Part shown: piece by piece, positions 4,918 to 59,603 of the stretch | Numbering within the stretch: position 1 is the stretch's first letter | Layout: every line of letters starts with the position of its first letter | From: a bacterium | GTDB lineage: Bacteria; Patescibacteriota; Minisyncoccia; 2-02-FULL-40-12; IGHO2-12-FULL-4 | Reading direction: 5' to 3' | DNA length: 64,000 nucleotides | NCBI GenBank assembly: GCA_030647955.1 | Contig: JAUSIQ010000003.1 | Coordinates: 2,111 to 66,110, forward strand | The notes under the pieces: model-generated | What the model was told of the DNA's origin: nothing | Seen by the model: the letters and a program-made list of their open reading frames with translations, nothing else | Database searches by the model: none | Made by a program: the position numbers and the translations under genes

Positions 4918-5043
4918 AGCTTCCTCCTCCCCCTAAATTAATAGGTGTGTCTAGCTTTGTACACTTAAGCATGCAAATTATTTTATGTCAACGCTAGACC
5001 AGCGGGGGAGTTTTGTTATGGTAGGTAGAGAAAAATTACTGGA

Positions 5044-7237: not shown

Positions 7238-8320
7238 ATGGATAAAAAAGGCTCAACCAGAATAGTTTATCATGATGTCTCGGTCTACACCGTCACTAAA
7301 ATAGTGTTGGTTTTGTTGTTTTTCGCTGCTTTGTATCTCTTGCGTGACATTATCTTTATCCTACTTTTTGCCATAATTATCGCCTCCGGAATTACCCCTT
7401 TTGCCAACTGGTTAGACCAGAAAAAATTCCCTCGTATTCTGGGAGTTTTAATTCTCTATCTCTCTCTTTTTGCTTTGGCTCTTTTCTTGCTTTCTTTGGT
7501 AGTGCCTTTTGTGACCGGAGAACTGAACCAGCTCATCAAAGATCTGCCGCGTTTTATCAATCAGGTTTCGAGCTCTCTGGAAAAAGCGCAGGAGAGTTCC
7601 AGTCGGTATGTGGATCTCTTTAGTGAGATCCAAAACCTACTAGACACTTCTGCTGGTTATTTGCAGGCCTCCTCGCAATCAGCCTTTAACTTTGTGATTA
7701 GTATCTTTGGTGGACTATTTTCTTTCTTTGCCGTTATCGTCTTATCCTTTTATCTCTCCGTGATGCGAGGAGGTATTGAAAGTTTCATCCGTTCAATTGT
7801 CCCCAAGGAATACGAAGCGGAAGTGCTCAATGTCTGGCGTCGTTCGGAGAAGAAAGTTGGCAAGTGGCTGCAGGGACAGTTACTTTTGGCTTTGGTAGTG
7901 GGCTTGACAGTGTACGTGACCCTCTCGATTATGGGTATTAAGTTTGCTCTATTGCTTGGTATTGTGGCGATGGTTTTGGAGTTAGTACCGAATGTTGGAC
8001 CAGTACTGGCGGCTATTCCGGCGGTGATCTTAGCTTTTACGCAATCAACGACTTTAGGGATTTGGGTGGTAGTGGCTTATGTGATTATTCAGCAGTTGGA
8101 AAACCATGTCCTAGTGCCGATTGTGATGGGTCGCGCGGTAGGGCTTAATCCGGTGGTGGTAATCTTGGCCTTATTGATCGGTTTCCACTTGGCTGGGATT
8201 GTTGGGATGATTTTATCGGTCCCAGTAGCGGCAATTATCGTCGAAATTCTAGATGAATTTTCTAAACATCGCTACCATGCGGGAACGGAAGTAGTAACGC
8301 CGGAGAGCAACAATGGCTAA
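7238..8320 (+). CDS. AI-2E family transporter (PerM/UPF0118) membrane protein
   Basis: Multi-TM protein with the conserved C-terminal region ...ELVPNVGPVLAAIPAV...QQLENHVLVPIVMG. Confidence 0.7.
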   Translation: MDKKGSTRIVYHDVSVYTVTKIVLVLLFFAALYLLRDIIFILLFAIIIASGITPFANWLDQKKFPRILGVLILYLSLFALALFLLSLVVPFVTGELNQLIKDLPRFINQVSSSLEKAQESSSRYVDLFSEIQNLLDTSAGYLQASSQSAFNFVISIFGGLFSFFAVIVLSFYLSVMRGGIESFIRSIVPKEYEAEVLNVWRRSEKKVGKWLQGQLLLALVVGLTVYVTLSIMGIKFALLLGIVAMVLELVPNVGPVLAAIPAVILAFTQSTTLGIWVVVAYVIIQQLENHVLVPIVMGRAVGLNPVVVILALLIGFHLAGIVGMILSVPVAAIIVEILDEFSKHRYHAGTEVVTPESNNG

Positions 8321-20634: not shown

Positions 20635-21396
20635 GTGGCACGCATCATAAACATCTGTAACGAAAAAGGTGGAGTTGGTAAGACCACCACCACTATTAAC
20701 TTGGCTGCTTATCTTGCTGCTCTGGGAAAGTATGTTTTGGTTGTTGATCTTGACCCCCAGGCTAATGCTAGCGGTGGTTTGGGAGTGAAGGTAGCAGATG
20801 ATCATCTCAATATTTATCACTCTCTGGTGGGAAACGAAAGTCCAGGTTCTTATTTGAGAAAAACTGCTTTGTTCGGCTATGATCTTTTGCCAGCTTCGGC
20901 TAGTTTAGCTGGGGCGACGGTGGAATTGGTGAGTGTGGAGTCTAGAGAGTTTCGTTTAAAGAAGGCCCTCAACTCTATTCGTACTAATTACGATTACATT
21001 TTGATTGATTCTCCTCCTTCATTGGGCTTGCTGACCATTAATGGCTTGGCAGCCGCTGAAGAAGTTATTATTCCGGTGCAGTGTGAGTATTTTGCGCTCG
21101 AAGGATTGGGAAATTTGTTGCAAACCATTGAATTGGTACGCTCTTCTTTAAATCCACAATTGAAAATCGCCGGAGTATTGCTTACAATGTATGATAAGAG
21201 GAACAGATTAGCGCGCGCGGTAGTGAAAGAAGTGCAAACCAATTTTCCCGGCAGAGTTTTTGAAGCAGTTATTCCGCGTTCCATTTCTTTAGCGGAGGCT
21301 CCGAGTTTTGGAAAAACTATTTTACAATTCGATCCAGGTTCCAAAGCCGGCCGGGCTTATCGGCAATTAGCGGAGGAAGTTGTTAGAATAATCTAG
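20635..21396 (+). CDS. parA: Chromosome partitioning ATPase ParA/Soj
   Basis: Deviant Walker A ICNEKGGVGKTTTTINLA; GTG start. Confidence 0.9.
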   Translation: MARIINICNEKGGVGKTTTTINLAAYLAALGKYVLVVDLDPQANASGGLGVKVADDHLNIYHSLVGNESPGSYLRKTALFGYDLLPASASLAGATVELVSVESREFRLKKALNSIRTNYDYILIDSPPSLGLLTINGLAAAEEVIIPVQCEYFALEGLGNLLQTIELVRSSLNPQLKIAGVLLTMYDKRNRLARAVVKEVQTNFPGRVFEAVIPRSISLAEAPSFGKTILQFDPGSKAGRAYRQLAEEVVRII

Positions 21397-21478
21397 TTTA
21401 TCAAGTTTATAATGTTATAAAGTTTGTAAAGTTAAAATCTCTGACTTTAAAAACTTTACGAACTTGATGAACTTTTAA
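21397..21478. repeat. AT-rich palindromic intergenic element (family member A) between parA and parB
   Basis: Arms ATCAAGTTTATAA...TTTGTAAAGTT and AACTTTACGAACTTGATGAACTT are reverse complements; same motif family as copies at 31468, 47333, 47904, 57480, 59009, 59505. Confidence 0.7.
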
Positions 21479-24341: not shown

Positions 24342-24473
24342 GACAAAAGGGTTAAATCCCGTTAGAGATGATGATATGTGTCGTAGTCAAGATATTATTT
24401 TTAAATCAAATTGGGGACTTGGTAGATCTCTAACGGGATAAACTTTAATCTAACAGAAACTCATTATGTTGAC

Positions 24474-27864: not shown

Positions 27865-28431
27865 TTAGGAAACGATCTGAGTCAATTTCGCTAATCCTTC
27901 TTTGATAATCTTCTTGAGATCTTCCTTTTCGGTAGAAGTAAAAGAAGACAAAACCAAGTTGCCGATCAACTCTTTTCTCTTTTCGTCAGATGATTGGCTG
28001 CGAGCTAATTTTAATTTAGAGTTGCCGATGCCGATTTTAAGACGATAGATTTTTTCGGTTTTAAGATGATTGATAATTGAAGCCACCCCTTTGTGTCCGC
28101 CCGGACCGGATTCCGGGGTGAGTTTGGTGGAGCCAAATGGGACATCCAGATCATCGTGAATGATAATGATATTTTCGTTTTTCAATTTGTAGAAAGTTTT
28201 AATTTTCTTTACCGCTACACCGGAATTATTCACGTACGTCTGCGGCTTGGCTAAGATAACCTTTTGATCATTAAATTTCCCTGAAGCGATTTCCGCTTCC
28301 AGTTTTTTCTCCAATACAAACTCGCTGGCCTTCATTTCTTTGGCCAAAGCATCTAAAAACTTAAACCCCACATTGTGGCGAGTTCCTTCGTATTGCTTAT
28401 CCGGATTACCTAAACCGATAATTAGATACAT
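27865..28431 (-). CDS. pth: Peptidyl-tRNA hydrolase
   Basis: MYLIIGLGNP...RHNVGF N-terminus. Confidence 0.85.
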   Translation of the reverse strand: MYLIIGLGNPDKQYEGTRHNVGFKFLDALAKEMKASEFVLEKKLEAEIASGKFNDQKVILAKPQTYVNNSGVAVKKIKTFYKLKNENIIIIHDDLDVPFGSTKLTPESGPGGHKGVASIINHLKTEKIYRLKIGIGNSKLKLARSQSSDEKRKELIGNLVLSSFTSTEKEDLKKIIKEGLAKLTQIVS

Positions 28432-28545
28432 TCCGTACGAAGTAGCAGGGTCATGGACATAAGTTGAGTGACCACGACTTGGCTACCTTATTATTTAACG
28501 TTCCCGTTACCAGTTAACCCGACAGGGCGACTTCGTACGGGATAC
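28432..28545. repeat. ~114-bp element with terminal inverted repeats TCCGTACGAAGT / ACTTCGTACGGGA (family 2, copy 1), abutting the pth start codon
   Basis: Inverted repeat seen directly; same TIR core as 50438-50544. Confidence 0.55.
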
Positions 28546-28603
28546 ATGTCTTACATTATATAGGGAGAACAAAATAAGGCAAATAAGCGTATTTCGCTAT
28601 CTG

Positions 28604-28643: not shown

Positions 28644-29270
28644 ATGGGAGAAAATGACGATTTAAAGGATAATTTGAGTCCTGAATCTGGTTATGACCAG
28701 CGAGAGGTGGTAGGCTTTTTTTGGGAGGTTGTTAAAATGGTGGTGCTATCTTTGGCTATCATTGTCCCAATCCGCTACTTTGTAATTCAGCCCTTCTTTG
28801 TCAAAGGTGCTTCCATGGAGGAGAGTTTTCATAACGGGGATTACGTGCTGATCGATGAGATCTCGTACCGTTTTAATGAACCCCAGAGAGGTGATGTTGT
28901 AGTCTTTCGTTTTCCTCAAGATCCCAGCCAGTACTTTATCAAGCGGATCATCGGATTACCGGGTGAGAAGATTCAGATAAAAAGTAACGAGGTGCTTATC
29001 TTTAACGAAGAACACCCCGAAGGATTTATTTTAGATGAATCTGCTTACCTGGAAAATGATCAGCGTACGACCGGAGATTTTAGTATGAATGTTGATGAGA
29101 AGGAATATTTTGTGTTAGGAGATAATCGGATGCATAGTTCGGATTCCCGCATCTGGGGAGCGGTTAATCGTCAACTTATCAGCGGCCGAGTATTTCTAAG
29201 AGCTTGGCCGATCACTGACATTGGTACTTTCTCCGGTGTTCAATATCTCACTCCTCAATTGGCAGATTAG
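28644..29270 (+). CDS. lepB: Signal peptidase I
   Basis: S26 motifs GASMEESF (Ser nucleophile) and GDNRMHSSDSR. Confidence 0.85.
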   Translation: MGENDDLKDNLSPESGYDQREVVGFFWEVVKMVVLSLAIIVPIRYFVIQPFFVKGASMEESFHNGDYVLIDEISYRFNEPQRGDVVVFRFPQDPSQYFIKRIIGLPGEKIQIKSNEVLIFNEEHPEGFILDESAYLENDQRTTGDFSMNVDEKEYFVLGDNRMHSSDSRIWGAVNRQLISGRVFLRAWPITDIGTFSGVQYLTPQLAD

Positions 29271-31203: not shown

Positions 31204-31467
31204 ATGGACGTCAAAAGACGACCGAATGAAACAATCGGCAGTGCTTTACGAAGATTTTCTAAACTGGTTCAACAGAGCCGGCTTTTGAATAAAGCAAAAG
31301 CCTCTCGTTTCTACAAAAAGAAAGCGAGCGATCGACAAGATAAGAACCGCGCTATTATGCGTGAAGAGTTAAGAGCTCTCCGCAAGCGTTTAGAAAGACT
31401 GGGTAAGTACGACGATGAAACTTTTGAAGAAGAGAAGAGAAAAGTTAAACAAAAACTAGATCTATAG
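31204..31467 (+). CDS. rpsU: 30S ribosomal protein S21
   Basis: MDVKRRPNETIGSALRRFSKL...RFYKKK matches the S21 pattern. Start reassigned to ATG at 31204, preceded by AAAGGAGG; the tracked ORF start at 31105 is upstream of the RBS. Confidence 0.7.
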   Translation: MDVKRRPNETIGSALRRFSKLVQQSRLLNKAKASRFYKKKASDRQDKNRAIMREELRALRKRLERLGKYDDETFEEEKRKVKQKLDL

Positions 31468-31556
31468 TTCATCAAGTTCATAAAGTTTGTAAAGTTCATA
31501 AAGCAAGAGAAATGCGAACTTGATAAACTTGAGAACTTTATAACTTGATAAACTGT
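31468..31556. repeat. AT-rich palindromic intergenic element (family member B) between rpsU and yqeY
   Basis: TTCATCAAGTTCATAAAGTTTGTAAAGTTCATAAAG ... AACTTGATAAACTTGAGAACTTTATAACTTGATAAACT arms. Confidence 0.7.
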
Positions 31557-44846: not shown

Positions 44847-45734
44847 TTACTTTTTAGCCGTCAGAGACTTTTTCTCTTGGGCCATGCGGTCTAAAATACT
44901 TCTTAGCATTACATAGGCCTGATCTTCGTGTCGAAAATTAGTCGAAATATTCTCCTTGCCTTTTAGTATACCTTGAATCAAAGTGAGAGCGGTGGTTAGT
45001 TTTTTACTTGCTTCCCCGGAAGAGAAAGGAATGAGTCGAGCTAATTGCAATCCGATTTCTTCTAAAAACTGTCTTTGTACTTGATGAGTGGCTAGTTCTT
45101 CTCTTTTGTTTTCTACAGATAGCTCTAATAAACTTTGATATGTTTTGGTGTCGGCTGCGAGCACTACGCGAGGGATGTGCAGTAGAGGCTCTTTGAAATC
45201 TTCTTGCGCTTCGGATTGAAAGTATTTCACTGTGCTTAATCTGCCTTCCTCGACTTCCTTCTTAATTTTTAATAATTTGCCGGTGAGATATTCTTCGTCT
45301 TCGGTGGAAGCCACATCTATCGCTAAAGCTAAGCGAGAAACGCCATCGTGATCTACTAGCTCAATTACCAGATCTACTCCATTGGCGATATCATCATAGG
45401 TCGATGTTTTTACGGTAAAGGCGTTGTCCCCAAACCAGTTATTTAATTCACTTTGTACGAAGATGAGAGCTTCTAGAATTTTCCCCCTTCGATTTCTTGA
45501 TCTTTCTTGTTGATTAAACTTGCCTTGCCGATCGGCTACATAGGCCTGATCGTGAGCAATCTCTTTAGCTGGATATTTGTCTTCAAATTTGCGGATATCA
45601 ATAGCGGCTTCTTCTGCTTGTAAAACAAAAGCCTCGTAGGCCTTTGTTTCGAGCTCTTCTAGATGAGCCCTTCTTTCCGCTGGCAAAAGTTTTTCACCCA
45701 TATTAAGTGTTAAAAACCTTTGTATTTGTCCCAA
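44847..45734 (-). CDS. Hypothetical acidic protein (295 aa), co-oriented with rpmB and tRNA-Pro
   Basis: Long ORF; no recognisable motif. Confidence 0.45.
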   Translation of the reverse strand: MGQIQRFLTLNMGEKLLPAERRAHLEELETKAYEAFVLQAEEAAIDIRKFEDKYPAKEIAHDQAYVADRQGKFNQQERSRNRRGKILEALIFVQSELNNWFGDNAFTVKTSTYDDIANGVDLVIELVDHDGVSRLALAIDVASTEDEEYLTGKLLKIKKEVEEGRLSTVKYFQSEAQEDFKEPLLHIPRVVLAADTKTYQSLLELSVENKREELATHQVQRQFLEEIGLQLARLIPFSSGEASKKLTTALTLIQGILKGKENISTNFRHEDQAYVMLRSILDRMAQEKKSLTAKK

Positions 45735-45738
45735 GTCT

Positions 45739-45885
45739 AAGGCAAAAGATGAGTATTGAGCGAGACGTATATGAATACGGCGAGCTCAAACGGAATCTTT
45801 TAACGCAGGAATTGGGCAAACCTGAAAGGCTTAAATTCCGTAGAGCCCTATATCTTCGGGCTCCGGAATTTAAGTGCAGAGGTTT
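45739..45885 (+). repeat. Copy 2 of the duplicated conserved element (70 nt identical to 564-633, ~27 nt more at ~75%), followed by a different 11-bp-stem hairpin
   Basis: Exact match; hairpin GGCTTAAATTCCG...CGGAATTTAAGTGC with inner GAGCCC/GGGCTC stem. Confidence 0.6.
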
Positions 45886-46183: not shown

Positions 46184-46792
46184 ATGGAAAGTTTTATTTT
46201 TATCATTTTTCAGGTTTTAGTGGTGCTTTTTTCGATTGTTTTGCACGAAGTCTCCCACGGAGTGATGGCGAATAGTTTAGGAGATCCTACCGCGAAGGTG
46301 GCTGGCCGCTTAACTCTCAATCCCATTAAGCATCTCGATTTCTTTGGCTCTATAATTTTACCCTTTGTTTTGTATACGATCAGCCAGGGGACTTTTGTGT
46401 TCGGCTATGCCAAGCCCGTTCCGTACAACCCCTTAAACTTAAGAGATCAGCGCTATGGTCCAGCCAAAGTGGCGATGGCTGGCCCATTAACTAATTTGGC
46501 GATCGCGCTTTTGATGGGAATGGTCTTGCGTTTTTTGCCGGACGGAATGGGCAACGCCAATACCCATGCGCTTTTGGGCTACGCCGTTTTAATCAATTTG
46601 GTCTTGGCTGTTTTTAACCTCATGCCCGTCCCGCCTTTGGACGGTCATTGGTTGGCGCTTACTTTTGCTCCGCGCTTGGCCTACTTCTTTCAGCGTTTCG
46701 GGATGATTTTATTCTTTGTCTTAATTTTGTTTGTTTTTCCTTTGTTTTCTCCTCTTATCCTTCGACTTTTCGAACTGATTATCGGCTCCTAA
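46184..46792 (+). CDS. Site-2 protease family (M50-like) membrane zinc metalloprotease
   Basis: HEVSHGVMA (HExxH) in a TM helix plus a second NLMPVPPLDGHWL motif (LDG). Confidence 0.65.
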   Translation: MESFIFIIFQVLVVLFSIVLHEVSHGVMANSLGDPTAKVAGRLTLNPIKHLDFFGSIILPFVLYTISQGTFVFGYAKPVPYNPLNLRDQRYGPAKVAMAGPLTNLAIALLMGMVLRFLPDGMGNANTHALLGYAVLINLVLAVFNLMPVPPLDGHWLALTFAPRLAYFFQRFGMILFFVLILFVFPLFSPLILRLFELIIGS

Positions 46793-46920: not shown

Positions 46921-47334
46921 ATGCCGACATTTAACCAACTATTAAAGAAACCCCGCAAGAAGCTTAAGGCGAAGACTAAGTCGCCGGCTTTGGCGCACAG
47001 TTTTAACACGGTTTTGAATCGTCCGGTTTTCCATGATTCTCCTTTTAAGCGTGGTGTGGCCTTGAGTGTTAAGACCACCACTCCCAAGAAGCCGAACTCT
47101 GCTTTAAGAAAAATCGCCCGCTTGCGTCTTACTAATGGTATGGAAGTGACCGCTTACATTCCCGGAGTAGGACACAATCTCCAAGAGCACTCTGTTGTCA
47201 TGATTCGTGGTGGAAGAGTTAAGGATTTGCCTGGTATTCGTTACCACATTGTCCGTGGCGTTTTAGACTCGTCCGGAGTAGAGGGTCGCAAACAAGAGAG
47301 AAGTAAATACGGAGCCAAACGGCCGAAAAAATAA
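46921..47334 (+). CDS. rpsL: 30S ribosomal protein S12
   Basis: [14 protein letters not shown]...; S12 signature throughout. Confidence 0.95.
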
Positions 47335-47424
47335 GTTCATCAAGTCCATCAGGTTATAAAGTTCATAAAGTGGAAAACAAATTATAGAACTTTAAAAACT
47401 TGATAACTTTACAAACTTTTAACT
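47333..47424. repeat. AT-rich palindromic intergenic element (family member C), overlapping the rpsL stop codon
   Basis: AAGTTCATCAAGTCCATCAGGTTATAAAGTTCATAAAGTGG...AACTTTAAAAACTTGATAACTTTACAAACTTTTAACT; 92 nt identical to copy D. Confidence 0.75.
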
Positions 47425-47430
47425 ATAGTC

Positions 47431-47898
47431 ATGCGCAGACCAATAAAGAAAAAGAATTTCCAAGAGCCAGATACCAAATACTCCAGCATGCTGGTGGCTC
47501 GTTTGATTAACCAAGTCATGCAAGCGGGAAGAAAGACTGTGGCGCGTCGCTTGGTTTACGGAGCAATGGAAGTGGCTGCAGAAAAATTAAAGAAACCGGC
47601 TTTGGAAGTCGTTGAAACTGCTTTAGAAAATGCCGGACCACAACTAGAACTGCGCTCTCGCCGTATCGGTGGAGCGAATTATCAGGTTCCTTACGAAGTA
47701 CGGGGAGATCGCCGGGTCACCTTGGCTTTGCGTTGGATCGTTGGGTCTGCTCAAAATCAGAAGGGGAAGGGTATGCAGGAAAAGTTAGCCGAAGAACTCA
47801 TCAATGCTGTTAATAATACTGGTAACGCGGTTAAAAAGAAGCAAGACATGCATCGCATGGCGGAAGCCAATAAGGCTTTTGCTCACTTTGCCTGGTAA
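47431..47898 (+). CDS. rpsG: 30S ribosomal protein S7
   Basis: S7 signature. Confidence 0.95.
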
Positions 47899-47903
47899 AT
47901 AAC

Positions 47904-47996
47904 CAAGTTCATCAAGTCCATCAGGTTATAAAGTTCATAAAGTGGAAAACAAATTATAGAACTTTAAAAACTTGATAACTTTACAAACTTTTAACT
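47904..47996. repeat. AT-rich palindromic intergenic element (family member D) between rpsG and fusA; identical to C
   Basis: 92-nt identity with 47333-47424. Confidence 0.75.
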
Positions 47997-48002
47997 TCTG
48001 CA

Positions 48003-50105
48003 GTGAGGGAATATCCTATCGATAAAACTAGAAATATTGGCATCATTGCCCACATCGACGCCGGAAAGACAACTGTTTCCGAGCGCGTTTTGTTTTATAC
48101 GGGAGTCTCGCACAAAATTGGAGAGGTGCACGAAGGAGATACGGTTATGGATTGGATGGAGCAGGAGAGAGAGCGTGGTATCACTATTACTTCCGCGGCT
48201 ATCACCGCTTTTTGGACTCCCCAGGGTCTCGCCAAAGATAAGAAGAATGAATACAAGTTCAACTTAATTGACACTCCCGGACACATTGATTTTACAGTAG
48301 AGGTAAAGCGCTCTTTGCGCGTCTTGGATGGAGCGGTAGTGGTTTTTGATGGTGTAGCCGGAGTAGAGCCTCAATCTGAAACTAATTGGCGCTATGCCGA
48401 TGATTTCAAAGTTCCGCGTATTTGCTTTATTAACAAGCTCGATCGTCTCGGAGCTTCTTTTGAGCGCTCCTATCAGTCTATTTTGGAGCGATTAACTCCG
48501 TATGCGGTGCGTATGCAAATTCCGGATGGAGAAGAGGATCAATTTAAAGGCATTGTCGATCTTCTAGTGATGAAATATTACATCTTTGAGGGGGCGCATG
48601 GCGAGCTGGTTGTTGAAAAGCCAATTCCCGACCACCTTAAGGAGCGTGCCGATGAATTACACGGAGTTTTGATTGAAAAAATCGTAGAACAGGATGAGCA
48701 GGCTATGACCGAATATTTGGAAGGAAAAGAGATCTCCTTGGAAAGATTAAGGCAGATTGTTCGTAAGGCGACGATTGAAAACAAAATCGTCCCGGTTTTT
48801 ACGGGATCAGCCTTAAAGAACAGGGGCGTGCAATTTATGTTGGATGCCGTAGTTTACTACTTGCCATCCCCAGCAGATTTGCCACCAGTTAAAGGCCTAG
48901 ACGCTAGTGGAAAGGAAACTGAGCGTGAATTCAAGGACGAGGTTCCGTTCTCGGCTTTGGCTTTCAAAGTTGCCACTGATCCATACGTTGGCCAGCTAAC
49001 TTTCTTTCGGGTTTATTCCGGAACTTTAACCAGTGGGTCTTATGTTTATAATTCCACCAATGGTCAACAGGAAAGAATTAGTCGTATTATCTTGATGCAC
49101 GCTAACGAGCGTCAGGAAATTAAAGAGGTGCTGGCCGGAGATATCGCCGCTACGGTGGGATTGAAAGCCACTAGAACCGGAGATACCTTAACCGACCAGG
49201 AGAATACAATCATTTTAGAGAACATTGTTTTCCCGGAACCGGTTATTTCCCTGCGTATTGAACCGAAGACCAAAGCCGATCAAGAGAAGATGAGCTTATC
49301 CTTAAAAAAACTGTCGGACGAAGATCCCACTTTTCGCATTAAGAGCGATGTAGAAACAGCCGAAACCATTATCTCTGGAATGGGCGAGTTACATTTAGAA
49401 ATTATCGTGGATCGTCTCAAGAGAGAATTCGGGGTGAACGTAAATGTCGGTCGTCCGCAAGTGGCCTACAAGGAAACTATCCGTGAATCTGCTCAAGCCG
49501 AAGGTAAATATGTGCGGCAGTCTGGAGGGCGGGGACAGTATGGTCATGTGTGGATGAAGGTGGAGCCCATGGATCGAGGAGCGGGGTTTGAGTTCGTAAA
49601 CGCTATTAAAGGAGGCGTAGTTCCTAACGAGTATTTACCGGCCATTCAAAAAGGAGTCAGAGAGGTTTTGGACAAAGGAGTGTTGGCTGGTTTTCCGATG
49701 GTGGATCTTAAAGCGACGGCCTACGACGGTTCTTACCACGAAGTGGACTCTTCGGAAATTGCTTTCAAGATCGCGGCTGCTACTGCTTTTCAGGAGGGTG
49801 TTAAAAGAGCTAAGCCGGTGTTATTGGAACCGATTATGAAAGTAGAGATTATTATCCCGGATAAGTTTATGGGTGAGGTTACTGGCGATGTCAGCTCGCG
49901 CCGGGGAAGAATTGAGCAAATGAATGATCGGGCGGTGTTGAGTTTGAAAGTAATCGATGCTAAAGTGCCCTTATCGGAAATGTTTGGCTATGCCACTTCC
50001 ATTCGTTCTTTGACCGAGGGACGTGGCACCTTCACGATGGAGTTTAGTCATTACGAAGAAGTGCCGAATAATATCGCCCAGTTAATTATAGAGGGTAAAA
50101 AGTAA
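48003..50105 (+). CDS. fusA: Elongation factor G
   Basis: G domain [18 protein letters not shown]; full five-domain length; GTG start. Confidence 0.95.
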
Positions 50106-50114
50106 ATTTAGGAT

Positions 50115-50429
50115 ATGAATCTTAAAGATGTTAAAAAATTAGTGAAGACCCTGGGACATGTTGTAGTCGTAGAAGAGGATGGTTCGGGATTGGTAATCAT
50201 CTCGCTTGATAAATATCTCAGCCTGGTCAATGGACATGAGGAAGCAGTAACCACCGCTGAGGTATATACGGAAGAAAGCGGTGAAGTTGTCCTTCCCGAG
50301 AGCATTCGAGGGTTAAACGAACAAGAGCTAATGCTGATAGAGAAGCTCAATCAAGACATTGCGATTTTAAAAGAAGAAATTAAAAAGAAGGAGTTGGAGG
50401 AGCTGGAAAGTGGCTTAGGAGAAGGCTAA
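50115..50429 (+). CDS. Small protein with Phd/YefM-antitoxin-like N-terminal domain (orphan), inserted between fusA and tuf
   Basis: Pattern L..L...VVVEEDG...VIISLDKYLSL resembles the YefM/Phd fold; acidic coiled C-terminus; no toxin partner nearby. Confidence 0.3.
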   Translation: MNLKDVKKLVKTLGHVVVVEEDGSGLVIISLDKYLSLVNGHEEAVTTAEVYTEESGEVVLPESIRGLNEQELMLIEKLNQDIAILKEEIKKKELEELESGLGEG

Positions 50430-50437
50430 TGGGTGTT

Positions 50438-50544
50438 GATCCCGTACGAAATTTAACAGTTTATGAGCAATAATAATCAGAGGCGAGTCGCTACAAATTC
50501 AGCCTAATGTTATAATCATTTATCAGTTAAATTTCGTACGGGAT
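50438..50544. repeat. ~107-bp element with 19-bp terminal inverted repeats GATCCCGTACGAAATTTAAC / GTTAAATTTCGTACGGGAT (family 2, copy 2)
   Basis: Near-perfect inverted repeat seen directly; same CCGTACGAA core as 28432-28545. Confidence 0.6.
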
Positions 50545-50571
50545 TGACTAAGATTCATTATTTGTTACAAT
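50544..50571 (+). promoter_or_regulatory. Candidate tuf promoter TTGACT-16-TACAAT immediately after the inverted-repeat element
   Basis: Hexamers seen directly. Confidence 0.3.
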
Positions 50572-50669
50572 AGTAGAACATTACATAGTTATAGTATTAC
50601 TTAAGATAATAGCCATTAAATAATACGCCCTGAGCTTATTATTTAGTGTCTATTATCCTATCTCAATAA

Positions 50670-51869
50670 ATGGCAGGTAAATTTGATCGAACCAAGCCGC
50701 ACTTAAACGTCGGCACCATTGGCCACGTCGACCATGGAAAGACCTCGCTCACCGCGGCGATTTTGCATACTTTGAACCTCACCGGAGACGGCTATGGGGC
50801 CAGAGTGGAGAATATCAACGACATCGATAATGCTCCGGAAGAGCGTGCTCGCGGTATCACTATCGCTTTGCACCACTCCGAGTATGAAACTCCGAAAAGA
50901 CACTACGCTCACGTAGATGCTCCTGGTCACGCCGACTACATTAAGAACATGATCACTGGTGCTGCTCAGATGGATGCCGCTATTTTAGTGGTAGCCGCTT
51001 CGGATGGTCCGATGCCTCAGACTCGCGAACACATTCTTTTGGCTCGACAGGTGGGAGTACCCCATGTCTTAGTTTTCTTAAACAAGGTTGACCAGGTAGA
51101 TGATCCTGAATTGATCGACTTGGTGGAAGCCGAAGTTCGAGAACTTTTGAACAAGTATCAGTATCCTGGAAACGAGACCCCGATCATTCGTGGTTCCGCC
51201 TTGAAGGCTTTGGAAGCTAAAGATAAGGGAGATGCCGCTTTGCAGCCGGTTTTGGAGCTAATCAAGAAGTTAGATGAATATGTTCCAGACCCAGTTCGCG
51301 AAACCGACAAGCCTTTCTTGATGCCGATTGAAGACATCTTCTCCATTGAAGGCCGTGGCACGGTAGTTACCGGAAGAATTGAGCGCGGTATGATCAAGAT
51401 CAACGAAGAAATTGAAATCGTTGGGTTAACTCCGACTCAAAAGACCGTGGTCACTGGTATTGAAATGTTCAATAAGCAGTTGGATGAGGGTATGGCTGGA
51501 GACAATGCTGGTATTCTGCTTCGTGGAACCAAGAAAGAAGATATTTCTCGCGGCCAAGTTTTGGCCAAGCCGGGCAGTATCACTCCGCACACTGATTTCG
51601 AATCTGAAATTTATGTTTTGACCAAGGAGGAAGGTGGTCGCCACACTCCTTTCTTGAAGGGTTATAAGCCCCAGTTCTATTTCCGCACTACGGATGTAAC
51701 CGGAGAAATTACTTTGCCGGAAGGTGCTGAAATGGTTATGCCTGGAGATACCGTTACCGTTAAAATTAAATTAATTGCTCCGATCGCCATGCAAGAAAAG
51801 CAGCGGTTCGCTATCCGCGAGGGTGGAAAGACCGTAGGTGCCGGAGTAGTTACTAAGGTTACAGCCTAA
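50670..51869 (+). CDS. tuf: Elongation factor Tu
   Basis: [17 protein letters not shown] motifs; 399 aa. Confidence 0.95.
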
Positions 51870-57479: not shown

Positions 57480-57543
57480 AGTAAAGCTGCCAAAAGGAAT
57501 CTTACTTTATGAACTTGAAGAACTTTATAACTTGATAAACTAG
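57480..57543. repeat. AT-rich palindromic intergenic element (family member E, shorter, opposite orientation) between rpsQ and rplN
   Basis: Contains ACTTTATGAACTTGAAGAACTTTATAACTTGATAAACT, the reverse-complement orientation of the AAGTTCATAAAGT unit. Confidence 0.6.
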
Positions 57544-57546
57544 TTT

Positions 57547-57912
57547 ATGATTCAATTACGATCCATCGTTACTGTAGCAGATAATAGCGGAGCCAAAAAA
57601 GTTGGTGTCTTTAAGGTATTGGGCGGAACTCGCAAGCGCTATGCTCAACTGGGCGATGTCGTCGTGGTATCCGTTAAAGAAGCGGAGCCCCGTAAGCAAG
57701 TTAAGAAAAAAGATGTCTTACGAGCGTTAGTGGTTCGTCAGCGACAAAACTTCCGACGAGCAGATGGTAGTTATGTGCGCTTTGATGAAAACGCGGTTGT
57801 AATTTTAGAAGGTAAGGAGCCCAAGGGAGGAAGAATTTTCGGTCCCATTCCTCGTGAGATTAAAGAGCGCGGCTATGATACGATTGCTTCCTTAGCCCAA
57901 GAGATTGTCTAA
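57547..57912 (+). CDS. rplN: 50S ribosomal protein L14
   Basis: L14 signature. Confidence 0.95.
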   Translation: MIQLRSIVTVADNSGAKKVGVFKVLGGTRKRYAQLGDVVVVSVKEAEPRKQVKKKDVLRALVVRQRQNFRRADGSYVRFDENAVVILEGKEPKGGRIFGPIPREIKERGYDTIASLAQEIV

Positions 57913-58822: not shown

Positions 58823-59008
58823 ATGGCGAAAGAATCAACTAAGGCGCGAGCCAAAAAGAAACCCAAATATTCCAGCCGGATTGTCCGACGCTGTTTTATC
58901 TGCGGAAGAAAATACGGTTATATGCGCAAGTTCGATTTGTGTCGTATGCATTTCAGAGAATTGGCTAGTGAAGGATTGCTGCCAGGTATTACAAAATCAT
59001 CTTGGTAA
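58823..59008 (+). CDS. rpsZ: 30S ribosomal protein S14 type Z (zinc-binding)
   Basis: 61 aa, CFICGRK...CRMHFRE, ends ...SSW. Confidence 0.9.
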   Translation: MAKESTKARAKKKPKYSSRIVRRCFICGRKYGYMRKFDLCRMHFRELASEGLLPGITKSSW

Positions 59009-59097
59009 GAGAAGTTCATCAAGTTTATAAAGTTATAAAGTTCATAAAGTAGAAGGATCAAGTCTTAAAACTTTACGGACTTTTCACTTTATAAACT
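59009..59097. repeat. AT-rich palindromic intergenic element (family member F) between rpsZ and rpsH
   Basis: GAGAAGTTCATCAAGTTTATAAAGTTATAAAGTTCATAAAGTAGAA...AAAACTTTACGGACTTTTCACTTTATAAACT; near-identical to G. Confidence 0.75.
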
Positions 59098-59105
59098 ATT
59101 CCGCT

Positions 59106-59504
59106 ATGTATATTGTTTCCGACATGTTAATAAGAATCAAAAACGCGCAGGCGGCTCGAAAAGAGCGGCTTTTGATTCCGTTCTCCAAGATGAAATGGGA
59201 GATTGCCAAAGTCCTTAAAGAGGCGGGCTTTATTCAAGACTTTGAGAGAAGAAAAAAGAAAATAAAAAAGACCGAGCATGCTTTTATTGAAGTTAAGTTG
59301 GAGGTAACGGCAGGAGATGTGGCTATTTCTGAAGTAAAAATTATCAGCAAACCATCGAGACGGGTCTATATCAAAAAGAGTGAAATTCGACCAGTCTTAG
59401 GAGGTTATGGCATCGCGATTCTCTCTACTCCGAAAGGAGTAATGACGGGAGAAGAAGCCAAGAAGAATAACTTAGGAGGGGAATGGTTAGCTGAGATATG
59501 GTAA
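59106..59504 (+). CDS. rpsH: 30S ribosomal protein S8
   Basis: S8 signature. Confidence 0.95.
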   Translation: MYIVSDMLIRIKNAQAARKERLLIPFSKMKWEIAKVLKEAGFIQDFERRKKKIKKTEHAFIEVKLEVTAGDVAISEVKIISKPSRRVYIKKSEIRPVLGGYGIAILSTPKGVMTGEEAKKNNLGGEWLAEIW

Positions 59505-59603
59505 GAGAAGTTCATCAAGTTTATAAAGTTATAAAGTTCATAAAGTAGAAAGATCAAATCTTAAAACTTTAAAAACTTTACGGACTTTTCACTTTATAAA
59601 CTA
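59505..59603. repeat. AT-rich palindromic intergenic element (family member G) between rpsH and rplF; equals F plus a 10-nt internal duplication
   Basis: Differs from F by 3 single-nucleotide substitutions plus the 10-nt insertion AAAACTTTAA; the preceding TGGTAA (last codon + stop) is also shared with the rpsZ junction. Confidence 0.75.

Follow-up and report, generated by a model that had tools for sequence, protein, structure and literature searches.

Comparison with described repeat elements

The Correia elements of Neisseria (Correia repeat enclosed elements, CREE, or Neisseria miniature insertion sequences, NEMIS) represent the closest functional analogue of a family of short hairpin elements described here from a 64,000-nucleotide stretch of a Patescibacteria (Candidate Phyla Radiation; CPR) contig (GenBank assembly GCA_030647955.1; contig JAUSIQ010000003.1, positions 2,111 to 66,110 of the forward strand). 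The whole of this stretch, hereafter the window, contains three copies, designated E1, E2 and E3. The Correia elements are likewise non-coding, measure approximately 100-150 bp, are bounded by terminal inverted repeats, are flanked by a 2-bp duplication and lie near the 5' ends of genes. However, the ends of the two groups are unrelated (the Correia terminal repeat being 26 bp in length), and the target of the CPR elements is T-NN-A, with the NN being duplicated, rather than TA. Furthermore, the Correia elements are confined to one genus, while the CPR family spans several classes with unrelated interiors, and they neither sit on start codons, nor rebuild an ATG, nor follow the orientation of the gene strictly, all three of which are features of the CPR family. 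The ends of the Correia elements can create promoter elements and their transcripts form hairpins that are bound or cleaved by RNase III (PMC2649163), whereas the action of RNase III on the CPR elements is predicted only.

The CPR elements also resemble bacterial miniature inverted-repeat transposable elements (MITEs) and foldback repeats such as RUP, BOX, ERIC and Nezha in being small, non-coding, multicopy and intergenic, with inverted ends and presence/absence differences between strains. Copies of the latter share their interiors, and many have a known parent insertion sequence, whereas the CPR copies share only their ends, an internal hexamer and a common layout. Similarly, integron attC sites combine short conserved inverted ends with variable centres, range from 57 to 141 nt and derive their polarity from the asymmetry of the folded strand. 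In contrast to these, the CPR elements have no integrase, cassette ORF (open reading frame) or array and stand alone at housekeeping genes. An identity as attC was also rejected on the basis of the RYYYAAC/GTTRRRY core sites, which are absent from the family consensus, the only core-site match being a chance one in the extended stem of E2. Taken together, E1, E2 and E3 probably belong to a MITE-like family of mobile non-coding hairpins that is distributed across the Patescibacteria, is tied to promoters and start codons and functions as a leader at the RNA level. This family appears to have been undescribed so far; literature searches recovered neither the motif nor anything relevant on Patescibacteria in connection with MITEs or leaderless genes. 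To our knowledge, no other repeat family lands on start codons and rebuilds them with its own terminal bases, and the literature searches likewise returned no precedent for such start-codon specificity.

Elements in the window and their empty sites

The nine-nucleotide sequence CCGTACGAA occurs at four sites in the window (28433 and 50442 on the forward strand; 28532 and 50533 on the reverse strand), against an expectation of 0.34, and none of 100 dinucleotide-preserving shuffles reaches four. The sites constitute two inverted pairs, each around approximately 90 nt, and both of the enclosed regions fold into closed stems (z = -3.4/-3.6 for E1; z = -8.2 for E2). A sequence-only reading of this DNA had proposed two elements of approximately 110 bp with shared terminal inverted repeats and unrelated interiors, which were viewed as either MITE-like or as a long-range palindromic operator. 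The shared termini and the unrelated nature of the interiors are both confirmed, while the limits, which had been placed at 28432-28545 and 50438-50544, are refined to 28430-28543 and 50439-50544 on the basis of empty sites in relatives.

Element E1 (114 bp; 28430-28543, minus strand in the sense of pth) is located in the start codon of the leaderless gene pth, which encodes peptidyl-tRNA hydrolase (27865-28431, minus strand; Pfam PF01195, E = 5.5e-54). In the sense of the gene, the 5' arm reads ATCCCGTACGAA (28532-28543) and the 3' arm TTCGTACGGAAT (28430-28441), with one mismatch (arm ATTCCGTACGAA), and the last AT of the 3' arm (28431-28430) supplies the first two bases (AU) of the start codon of pth. 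Comparison of the filled and empty sites identifies a target-site duplication, AC on the forward strand and GT in the sense of the gene, with its proximal copy at 28428-28429 and its distal copy at 28544-28545. Position C28429 provides the G of the rebuilt pth ATG. A second, distal ATG (28545-28547, minus strand) represents the original pth start codon and the predicted transcription start, and now begins an upstream ORF of 18 codons (MYPVRS...). The TATAAT -10 box of the promoter (28555-28560, minus strand) is situated 7 nt upstream of the distal ATG, in leaderless arrangement. As had been observed from the sequence, the pth ATG (28429-28431, minus strand) abuts the repeat and has no Shine-Dalgarno sequence, which is explained by the insertion having divided the start codon of a leaderless gene.

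Homologues of Pth with 73-84 % identity were traced to their contigs, and the site is without the element in the relatives L121, L123 and L124. In the closest relative, ...ctccctatataatgtaaagc-ATGTATTTGATT runs uninterrupted through TATAAT-N7-ATGTAT, with the same -10 box and spacing as in the window, whereas the window reads ...ctccctatataatgtaagac-ATGTAT, followed by the element (CCCGTACGAAG ... CTTCGTACGGA) and ATGTATCTAATT. Two further relatives have the -10 box, 6-7 nt and the ATG, with no element.

Element E2 (106 bp; 50439-50544, plus strand) has perfect 19-bp arms (ATCCCGTACGAAATTTAAC) and lies within the -35 hexamer of the tuf promoter. The empty-site comparison identifies a TG duplication at 50437-50438 and 50545-50546. 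The rebuilt -35 box TTGACT (50544-50549, plus strand) takes its first T from the last base of E2, and the -10 box TACAAT (50566-50571, plus strand), 16 nt past it, is kept in the relatives L126 and L127. It had been noted that the second copy ends where a TTGACT-N16-TACAAT promoter begins; this holds, and follows from the position of E2 inside the -35 hexamer. In relatives that carry the small ORF between fusA and tuf (L125-L127), the sequence ...GTGTTGACTAAgattctttatttgttacaat shows the ORF stop codon overlapping the TTGACT -35 box, followed by TACAAT. The empty tuf site in L127 (and L125/L126) reads ...GTGTTGACTAAgatt...TACAAT, and the uninterrupted ...GTGTTGACTAA...TACAAT contains TTGACT-N16/17-TACAAT. 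By comparison, the window reads ...GGTGTTG, the element (ATCCCGTACGAA ... TTCGTACGGGAT) and TGACTAAgattcatt. A search with the elongation factor Tu (EF-Tu) of the window showed that this exact protein is not on record. The target-site duplications and the comparison of orthologous intergenic regions, both of which the sequence-only reading had put forward as checks, accordingly yielded GT (gene sense) at E1 and TG at E2, and pth and tuf sites that are empty in relatives.

Since the target of E2 does not include the AT found on each side, this terminal AT must be part of the element, which leaves the dinucleotide TG as the duplicated target; the same parse applied to E1 gives the GT duplication. 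An alternative parse, in which the element starts at CCC and is flanked by a 6-bp duplication, is ruled out by E2, as its flanks TTGAT / ATTGAC cannot be a duplication.

The third copy, E3 (84 bp; 24356-24439), had not been noted before. It belongs to a sister family with compensatory arms (ATCCCGTTAGAG / CTCTAACGGGAT, also given as CCCGTTAGAG / CTCTAACGGG), which are also found in the loci L074, L013, L039 and L044, and is flanked by an AA duplication (24354-24355 and 24440-24441). A distance of 14 nt separates it from the downstream relA/spoT start codon (24341, minus strand), and it begins approximately 7 nt past an extended -10 box (TGtTAGATT), which places it close to, or directly on, the transcription start predicted for this gene. 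The upstream regions of the relA relatives were too diverged to align, and an empty site for E3 could therefore not be recovered.

Distribution and composition of the family

One genome per species from 185,579 species was scanned with the query CCGTACGAA-N70-100-TTCGTACGG, and at least 119 loci were detected. Among the matches listed, approximately sixty-two are from Patescibacteria metagenome-assembled genomes (MAGs), often with several loci per MAG. The absence of any additional copies, which the sequence-only reading had named as counting against its proposal, is not borne out; scan and inspection together give at least approximately sixty-four genuine low-GC copies, nearly all of them in the Patescibacteria. 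The hosts among the matches listed include Saccharibacteria, groups of the Paceibacterota / Parcubacteria (Nomura-, Yanofsky-, Zambryskii- and Moranbacteria and Spechtbacterales) and unclassified low-GC bins labelled "bacterium". Fifty-nine copies that could be oriented by their downstream gene were used for the statistics below, and these, as well as the counts out of sixty-four low-GC copies and the scorable copies, are drawn from among the matches listed. Matches in high-GC genomes (Streptomyces and other actinomycetes; fixed spacing of 109 nt), which make up most of the remainder of the matches listed, were set aside as unrelated on the basis of their high GC content and lack of AT/CCC termini. 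One further locus, L095 (JAGVNG010000018.1), is labelled as a Nanoarchaeota archaeon, but contains an ordinary element of subfamily a, located at a leaderless start of bacterial type; in all probability, this bin is a misassigned member of the Patescibacteria.

The copies end in a 12-bp inverted repeat, ATCCCGTACGAA ... TTCGTACGGGAT, which extends in the Patescibacteria to ATCCCGTACGAA(R)(Y) ... (R)(Y)TTCGTACGGGAT. Individual elements measure 52-280 bp, with the majority being 96-122 bp in length, and their arms are spaced 28-256 nt apart. No coding capacity is evident, as no gene-sized ORF fits inside and the frames of the upstream ORFs vary among copies. A search that allowed mismatches in the arms, but required them to be complementary, distinguished sister families in which both arms are altered together (CCCGTTAGAR/YTCTAACGGG and CCCGAACGAA/TTCGTTCGGG). 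The interiors fall into subfamilies that recur across lineages. At least seven copies occur before different genes in MAG JBAZZC01, including at least five of a 97-100 bp subfamily and two of 280 bp, while two copies each are found in L050, L024 and L093. The two 280-bp copies of L075 (3659-3938 and 7619-7898) are approximately 93 % identical, share the same ends, contain no ORF and are each located at the ATG of a different gene with a GA duplication. At the other extreme, L064 contains two 52-bp miniatures (4973-5024 and 7825-7876; gtcaaCCCCGAACGAAGT - 25 nt - ACTTCGTACGGGGttgac), in which AC/GT termini replace AT; these suggest that the ends alone may be sufficient.

The MITE-like interpretation is upheld by the inverted repeats, the short duplication, the lack of coding capacity, the occurrence of several copies per genome and the presence/absence at orthologous sites, so that all MITE features tested, apart from an autonomous partner, are found in the family; no such partner occurs among the searched loci. 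Single or variant arms in the CPR loci resolved to further short copies rather than kb-scale pairs, no transposase is found among the top Pfam families of the adjacent genes, and no copy occurs in 2.9 million viral contigs. Comparison with Rfam 15 gave no match at gathering score for the elements, the tRNA-bearing loci or the look-alike repeats of the Lachnospiraceae discussed below, and at E values up to 10 only weak chance matches to eukaryotic microRNAs (miRNAs) and small nucleolar RNAs, well below the family thresholds, were obtained. No tRNA was detected by ARAGORN inside ordinary copies.

The 2-bp duplication is identical in 43 of the 59 copies (GA, 30; GG, 8; GT, 5), while in the remaining 16 the duplication measures 1 or 3 bp or the distal ATG has been lost. 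A T precedes the 2-bp duplication in 43/43 copies and an A follows it in 41/43, and the target can therefore be described as T-NN-A, or, equivalently, the elements could be assigned T...A termini and a duplication of 4 bp.

Association with start codons and promoters

One arm is directly followed by a G and a long ORF, such that its terminal AT is the AT of the start codon. This arrangement, with an ATG and an ORF of at least 50 aa directly at the arm, is observed in 59 of the 64 low-GC copies. On the other flank, 52/59 copies have a second start codon that precedes the CCC of the 5' arm by 5-7 nt (exactly 6 nt in 43), and the distal flank repeats the first bases of the gene: ATGTAT is present on both sides in all five genes that begin with ATGTAT. 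The start-codon target can be written as AT/GN/A (slashes enclose the duplicated bases), and the junction ...GGG-AT + GN... yields an intact ATG from the AT of the element and the duplicated G. A minority of copies (E2, L011 and L032) belong to a -35 class with the cut T/TG/ACA, where the junction ...GGGA-T + TGACA yields an intact TTGACA. Neither the association with start codons and promoters, nor the rebuilding of ATG and TTGAC, the strict polarity or the phylum-wide spread had been part of the sequence-only reading.

Strong -10 boxes, often of the extended type TGnTATAAT, are located 5-9 nt before the distal ATG in 16/49 copies, compared with 4.1 % of random ATGs in the same loci (p = 6e-11). 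This spacing is the arrangement expected of a leaderless messenger RNA (mRNA), for which transcription would start at the A of the ATG. Such a promoter is present at only 4/65 long ORFs of the window, so that the way in which genes are generally built does not account for the association. In L043 (3816-3897), the distal ATGGAAT overlaps the 3' end of a tRNA-Thr gene, and the leaderless mRNA may at first have been freed through processing of the tRNA 3' end instead of arising from its own promoter.

The downstream genes are diverse housekeeping genes, and include those for hibernation factor (four), single-strand binding protein (ssb; three), solute-binding proteins (three), H+-pyrophosphatase (two), release factors (two) and deformylase (two), as well as rpoC, leuS, rplD, tsaD and pth. 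They do not form the coherent regulon that might be expected if the arms were paired operator half-sites bound by a dimeric, DNA-looping regulator. The conserved half-palindromic arms do contain CGTACG and adjoin promoters, but their spacing varies from 28 to 256 nt, they change together and complementarily, co-varying as a helix, and the entire unit has been inserted between duplicated target bases and is absent from relatives. The operator that had been raised as the second option by the sequence-only reading is consequently considered extremely improbable.

Two further explanations based on promoters were rejected. An outward promoter inside the element is not supported, as -10-like hexamers are equally frequent on both strands and the 10 nt before the rebuilt ATG are conserved arm. 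Similarly, a -10 element of the extracytoplasmic function (ECF) type (CGTA) in the arm would lack a conserved -35, and the empty sites have ordinary TATAAT promoters.

The family would show how essential genes (pth, ssb, rpoC, leuS, prfA/B, def, hpf, relA and the tuf promoter) can be occupied by a mobile element in compact genomes of approximately 1 Mb, which have hardly any DNA to spare. As the Patescibacteria are mostly uncultured and have almost no transcript maps, an element which marks transcription starts and leaderless genes could serve as a sequence-only handle on the rules for promoters and translation initiation in this group. For the purposes of annotation, a hairpin of approximately 110 nt can be expected directly before the ATG, together with a spurious upstream ORF beginning with M-N/D/Y-P-V-R.

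Orientation and RNA structure

The orientation of the element relative to the gene is fixed, with no reversed copy among approximately fifty that could be scored. An internal CGGG, usually in the form (U)ACGGGA(W), occurs 20-36 nt into the element on the sense strand in 37/59 copies, while the reverse CCCG is found in 3/59. The motif is a copy of the end of the 3' arm; in E1 it is represented by ACGGGA at 28502-28507 (minus strand), for which pairing with the 5' arm is predicted while the RNA is still nascent. When the region from the distal ATG up to, but excluding, the 3' arm is folded, the CCCG of the 5' arm pairs with the internal motif in 50/59 copies, compared with only 10/59 when the whole element is reverse-complemented as a control. 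The internal motif may thus give rise to a predicted two-state leader, in which the 5' arm has two mutually exclusive partners, namely the 3' arm, in which case the AU of the start codon is covered, and the internal (A)CGGGA. The sequence GUACGGGAUG resembles the SELEX-derived CsrA consensus RUACARGGAUGU, and this is mentioned as a lead only.

The closing helix comprises at least 14 bp in 59/59 copies, takes in the first two bases (AU) of the start codon and shows co-variation at positions 13-14. The 3' arm is adjoined by a hairpin (e.g. GGAAAUGUAAACAUUUCC, GGAAAUCUAAAGAUUUCC and GAGAAUCUUUGAUUCUC) or an extended stem with a YCCU bulge, and the shared layout also includes an AT-rich centre. 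In the alignment of one subfamily, 98.3 % of the cells of the 3' hairpin are paired and five pairs show compensatory changes; this score is reached by none of 500 shuffles, and shifted registers are less than 50 % paired. A second subfamily has its hairpin stacked on the closing helix, with the 3' strand running through both without a break, and contains G.U pairs in the sense of the gene. Together, the stacked closing helix and 3' hairpin extend over approximately 21-23 bp. The sense fold is more stable than the antisense fold in 41/59 copies (mean -1.7 kcal/mol; Wilcoxon p = 0.006), and the 59 copies contain 188 G.U pairs in the sense and 111 in the antisense fold. These statistics agree with the strict polarity, and point to the gene-sense RNA, and not the DNA ends alone, being under constraint.

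The fixed polarity also bears on the possibility that the elements are invertible promoter switches, where a site-specific invertase would flip a segment of approximately 90 bp and thereby control whether the neighbouring gene is expressed. Inverted repeats of 12-22 bp do flank a short AT-rich segment beside promoters, and -10-like hexamers do occur inside the elements. The palindromic core CGTACG also recalls the ARACGTWCGT repeats of the Bacteroides Mpi system. However, the promoter lies outside the element at both empty and filled sites, the internal -10-like hexamers show no strand bias (52 versus 50 elements), and the markers of polarity point one way (37:3 and 50:10), with no flipped copy in the assemblies among the approximately fifty that could be scored. 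Furthermore, relatives are without the segment, and duplicated target bases lie on either side of it, which renders an invertible switch very improbable. An archaeal-type bulge-helix-bulge intron, a group I intron and a known self-cleaving ribozyme were likewise rejected, given the continuous helix, the small size and the absence of a ribozyme match in Rfam.

Alternatively, the elements may be purely selfish MITEs that insert at random T-NN-A sites, with only those insertions which rebuild an ATG or TTGACA surviving in compact genomes. The polarity and hairpins would then be remnants of the asymmetric ends of a parent transposon, and ACGGGA a subterminal repeat bound by the transposase. Asymmetric subterminal repeats are common in DNA transposons, and the inverted ends, target duplication, polymorphic sites and multiple copies are all consistent with such an origin, as is the low-information T-NN-A target, which fits a sequence preference followed by selection. 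Under this explanation, however, neutral sites such as gene 3' ends and regions upstream of promoters should dominate, yet 59/64 copies are located on a start codon. Nor would either orientation be favoured, since both rebuild the ATG equally well, but none of the approximately fifty scorable copies is reversed. The compensatory changes in the 3' hairpin are not required for end-binding, and the G.U pairs favour the gene-sense strand. Selfish insertion followed by survival alone is therefore regarded as unlikely.

Several observations nevertheless weigh against a mobile, promoter-tied family with a role as an RNA leader. At the level of mobility, the length of the duplication is variable (1-3 bp), which is unusual for a classical DDE transposase, and neither a transposase or recombinase nor an autonomous copy with the same ends was found in approximately 560 kb of CPR loci, kb-scale spacings being outside the reach of the scan. 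An empty E1 allele with identical flanks had no match in metagenomes, and recent mobility in this lineage is therefore putative. The occurrence of the same 12-bp ends across distinct CPR classes, together with unrelated interiors, is unusual for MITEs, and could mean that the ends are bound by a host factor which is itself conserved. That the 9-nt core does not vary is partly by construction, as it was required in the scan. At the level of the RNA, both the asymmetry and the shuffle statistics are inflated by relatedness within subfamilies and possible strand composition bias, the wobble signal in the variant arms alone is weak (10 G.U versus 5 A.C), the mismatch between the arms of E1 is C.A in the sense of the gene, and E2 and E3 are without the internal motif. 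Lastly, the distal ATG is absent in 7/59 copies, and a retained 5' AUG is thus not obligatory.

Copies carrying tRNA genes

Two copies in the Patescibacteria, in L117 (915-1028) and L154 (approximately 2400-2530), differ in that their arms directly flank a complete tRNA-Ser(CGA), the acceptor stem of which they extend by 12-13 bp. At both loci, this unit is enclosed within the anticodon loop of a second, outer gene resembling tRNA-Ser(CGA); the T arm of the outer gene has been lost in L117, and its D loop contains an inserted hairpin in L154. Among the copies checked, a tRNA is found between the arms only in these two. As the arms can carry a functional RNA as cargo in these copies, the RNA processing of the host must either tolerate the helix or remove it. 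Together with the conserved helix and the alternative pairing, the tRNA-carrying copies point to a step at the RNA level, which may involve processing, bypass or a switch.

It is conceivable that the arms are chiefly a host RNA-processing signal, with mobility being secondary. In this case, a ribonuclease conserved in the CPR, either RNase III or another enzyme, would recognise the CCCGUACGAA/UUCGUACGGG helix and excise the sequence between the arms to give a near-leaderless mRNA or a cargo RNA. The location of a complete tRNA-Ser(CGA) exactly between the arms in L117 and L154 constitutes the main support for this proposal. Also consistent with it are the length of the closing helix with its stacked 3' hairpin, corresponding to approximately two helical turns, and the phylum-wide conservation of the arms despite unrelated interiors, which fits a host factor. 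Bacterial ribosomal RNA (rRNA) intervening sequences offer a parallel, being sporadic hairpin insertions of approximately 100 nt in essential RNAs that are tolerated since RNase III cuts the stem. These occur in rRNA rather than at the starts of mRNAs, however, their termini contain no conserved 12-bp sequence, and a duplication of the target has not been documented for them. Bacterial RNase III is not known to require a sequence of 12 fixed bases, and cleavage of the helix is at present predicted only. A symmetric cut at the CGUACG dyad would, furthermore, be expected to leave a 4-nt leader rather than a 5' AUG. The target duplications and empty sites are left unexplained, and an insertion step at the DNA level would still be needed. 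Even though rnc is kept in at least 90 % of CPR genomes (PMC12641178), a primary role in processing is thus regarded as distinctly unlikely.

Proposed mode of insertion and expression

In the favoured explanation, that of a mobile MITE-like hairpin with a function as an RNA leader, a trans-acting enzyme that recognises the 12-bp ends would move the element. Its location would result either from the targeting of polymerase-bound promoter DNA or from strong selection for insertions that rebuild expression signals. The insertion points (+3/+4, approximately +1 and the -35 box) would all fall within the footprint of the polymerase. Under tolerance alone, neutral sites such as gene 3' ends would be expected, and as these are rare, targeting or positive selection is favoured. 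Integration within a few bases of transcription starts and in fixed orientation is known for the yeast element Ty3, which inserts at genes transcribed by RNA polymerase III (Pol III). Ty3 is, however, a eukaryotic retrotransposon that is tethered by transcription factors, and the CPR pattern could also come from selection.

Once inserted, the transcript would still start at the old ATG, 4 nt ahead of the helix, and the folded 5' leader would need to keep the gene expressible, for which three routes can be envisaged. Firstly (route a), the 5' arm may be captured by the internal motif, or by a ribosome that enters on the 5'-terminal AUG and translates the short upstream ORF, leaving the rebuilt AUG open. 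Secondly (route b), RNase III may cut the stacked helix of approximately 21-23 bp and so release a near-leaderless mRNA. Thirdly (route c), the 5'-terminal hairpin may serve mainly to shield the mRNA from RNase J. The evidence does not discriminate between these routes. A speculative parallel may exist in the gap of T4 gene 60 and the byps of Magnusiomyces mitochondria, which are reportedly mobile hairpin insertions that are tolerated inside genes via duplicated edge codons. By analogy, a duplicated AUG(N), brought side by side via the helix, flanks the hairpin in 52/59 copies. Bypass elements are located within ORFs, however, and are crossed by an elongating ribosome with peptidyl-tRNA, whereas the CPR insertion is at the initiation codon, shows no bypass signals and has no upstream AUG in 7/59 copies. 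The genes for the proteins invoked in these routes, as well as for YchF, are widely retained, with rnc (RNase III), rnj (RNase J) and ychF kept in at least 90 % of CPR genomes (PMC12641178).

A more specific version, which can be put forward only tentatively, is that of a mobile 5'-leader module adapted to leaderless genes, the insertion of which is directed to polymerase-bound promoter DNA (+3/+4 or -35) in fixed orientation, and whose RNA solves the problem it has itself created. The helix would set the rebuilt AUG beside the retained 5'-terminal AUG, and a ribosome in leaderless mode could reach the gene by bypass of the initiation site or by re-initiation coupled to unwinding; alternatively, a host RNase could cut the helix and recreate a leaderless mRNA. 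The internal ACGGGA would set the switch, and might be read by a conserved CPR factor. If this version were true, dozens of housekeeping genes would be under the control of a single mobile element.

Neighbouring genes and other repeats

E1 is flanked on its other side by lepB (28644-29270), while E2 is located between fusA (48003-50105) and tuf (50670-51869). An ORF of 104 aa with no Pfam match (50115-50429) is found between the latter two genes. It is conserved in related Patescibacteria, and the window copy stops 7 nt upstream of the E2 target duplication. Downstream of the promoter, the tuf leader (50572-50669) comprises approximately 100 nt with no recognisable Shine-Dalgarno sequence before the ATG (ctatctcaataaATG), and includes a hairpin (approximately 50603-50659) for which Rfam gives only chance miRNA matches.

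Among the loci recovered in the scan, seven from the Lachnospiraceae/Clostridiales (L018, L023, L066, L076, L082, L087 and L111) contain an unrelated-looking repeat of approximately 100-120 nt, with ends (G)CGCCGTACGAAGCCGGA ... GCTTCGTACGGTGA, a terminator-like interior and no Rfam match, which may constitute a separate family of the Firmicutes.

Two further types of repeat are present in the window. The first, which is presumably the first repeat family of the sequence-only reading, consists of 9-bp periodic units (AAGTTCATA / AAGTTTATA), often in inverted halves, and forms arrays at 21385-21475, 31466-31505, 47326-47424, 47898-47996, 57497-57548, 59003-59083 and 59499-59588. The second is a non-coding repeat of 99 nt, the two copies of which (569-667 and 45734-45832) are 92 % identical, have no Rfam match and are each followed by a different GC-rich hairpin. 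These copies are situated upstream of recO (724-1263) and of a gene for an M50 peptidase (46184-46792), respectively, and may represent a shared cis-regulatory leader.

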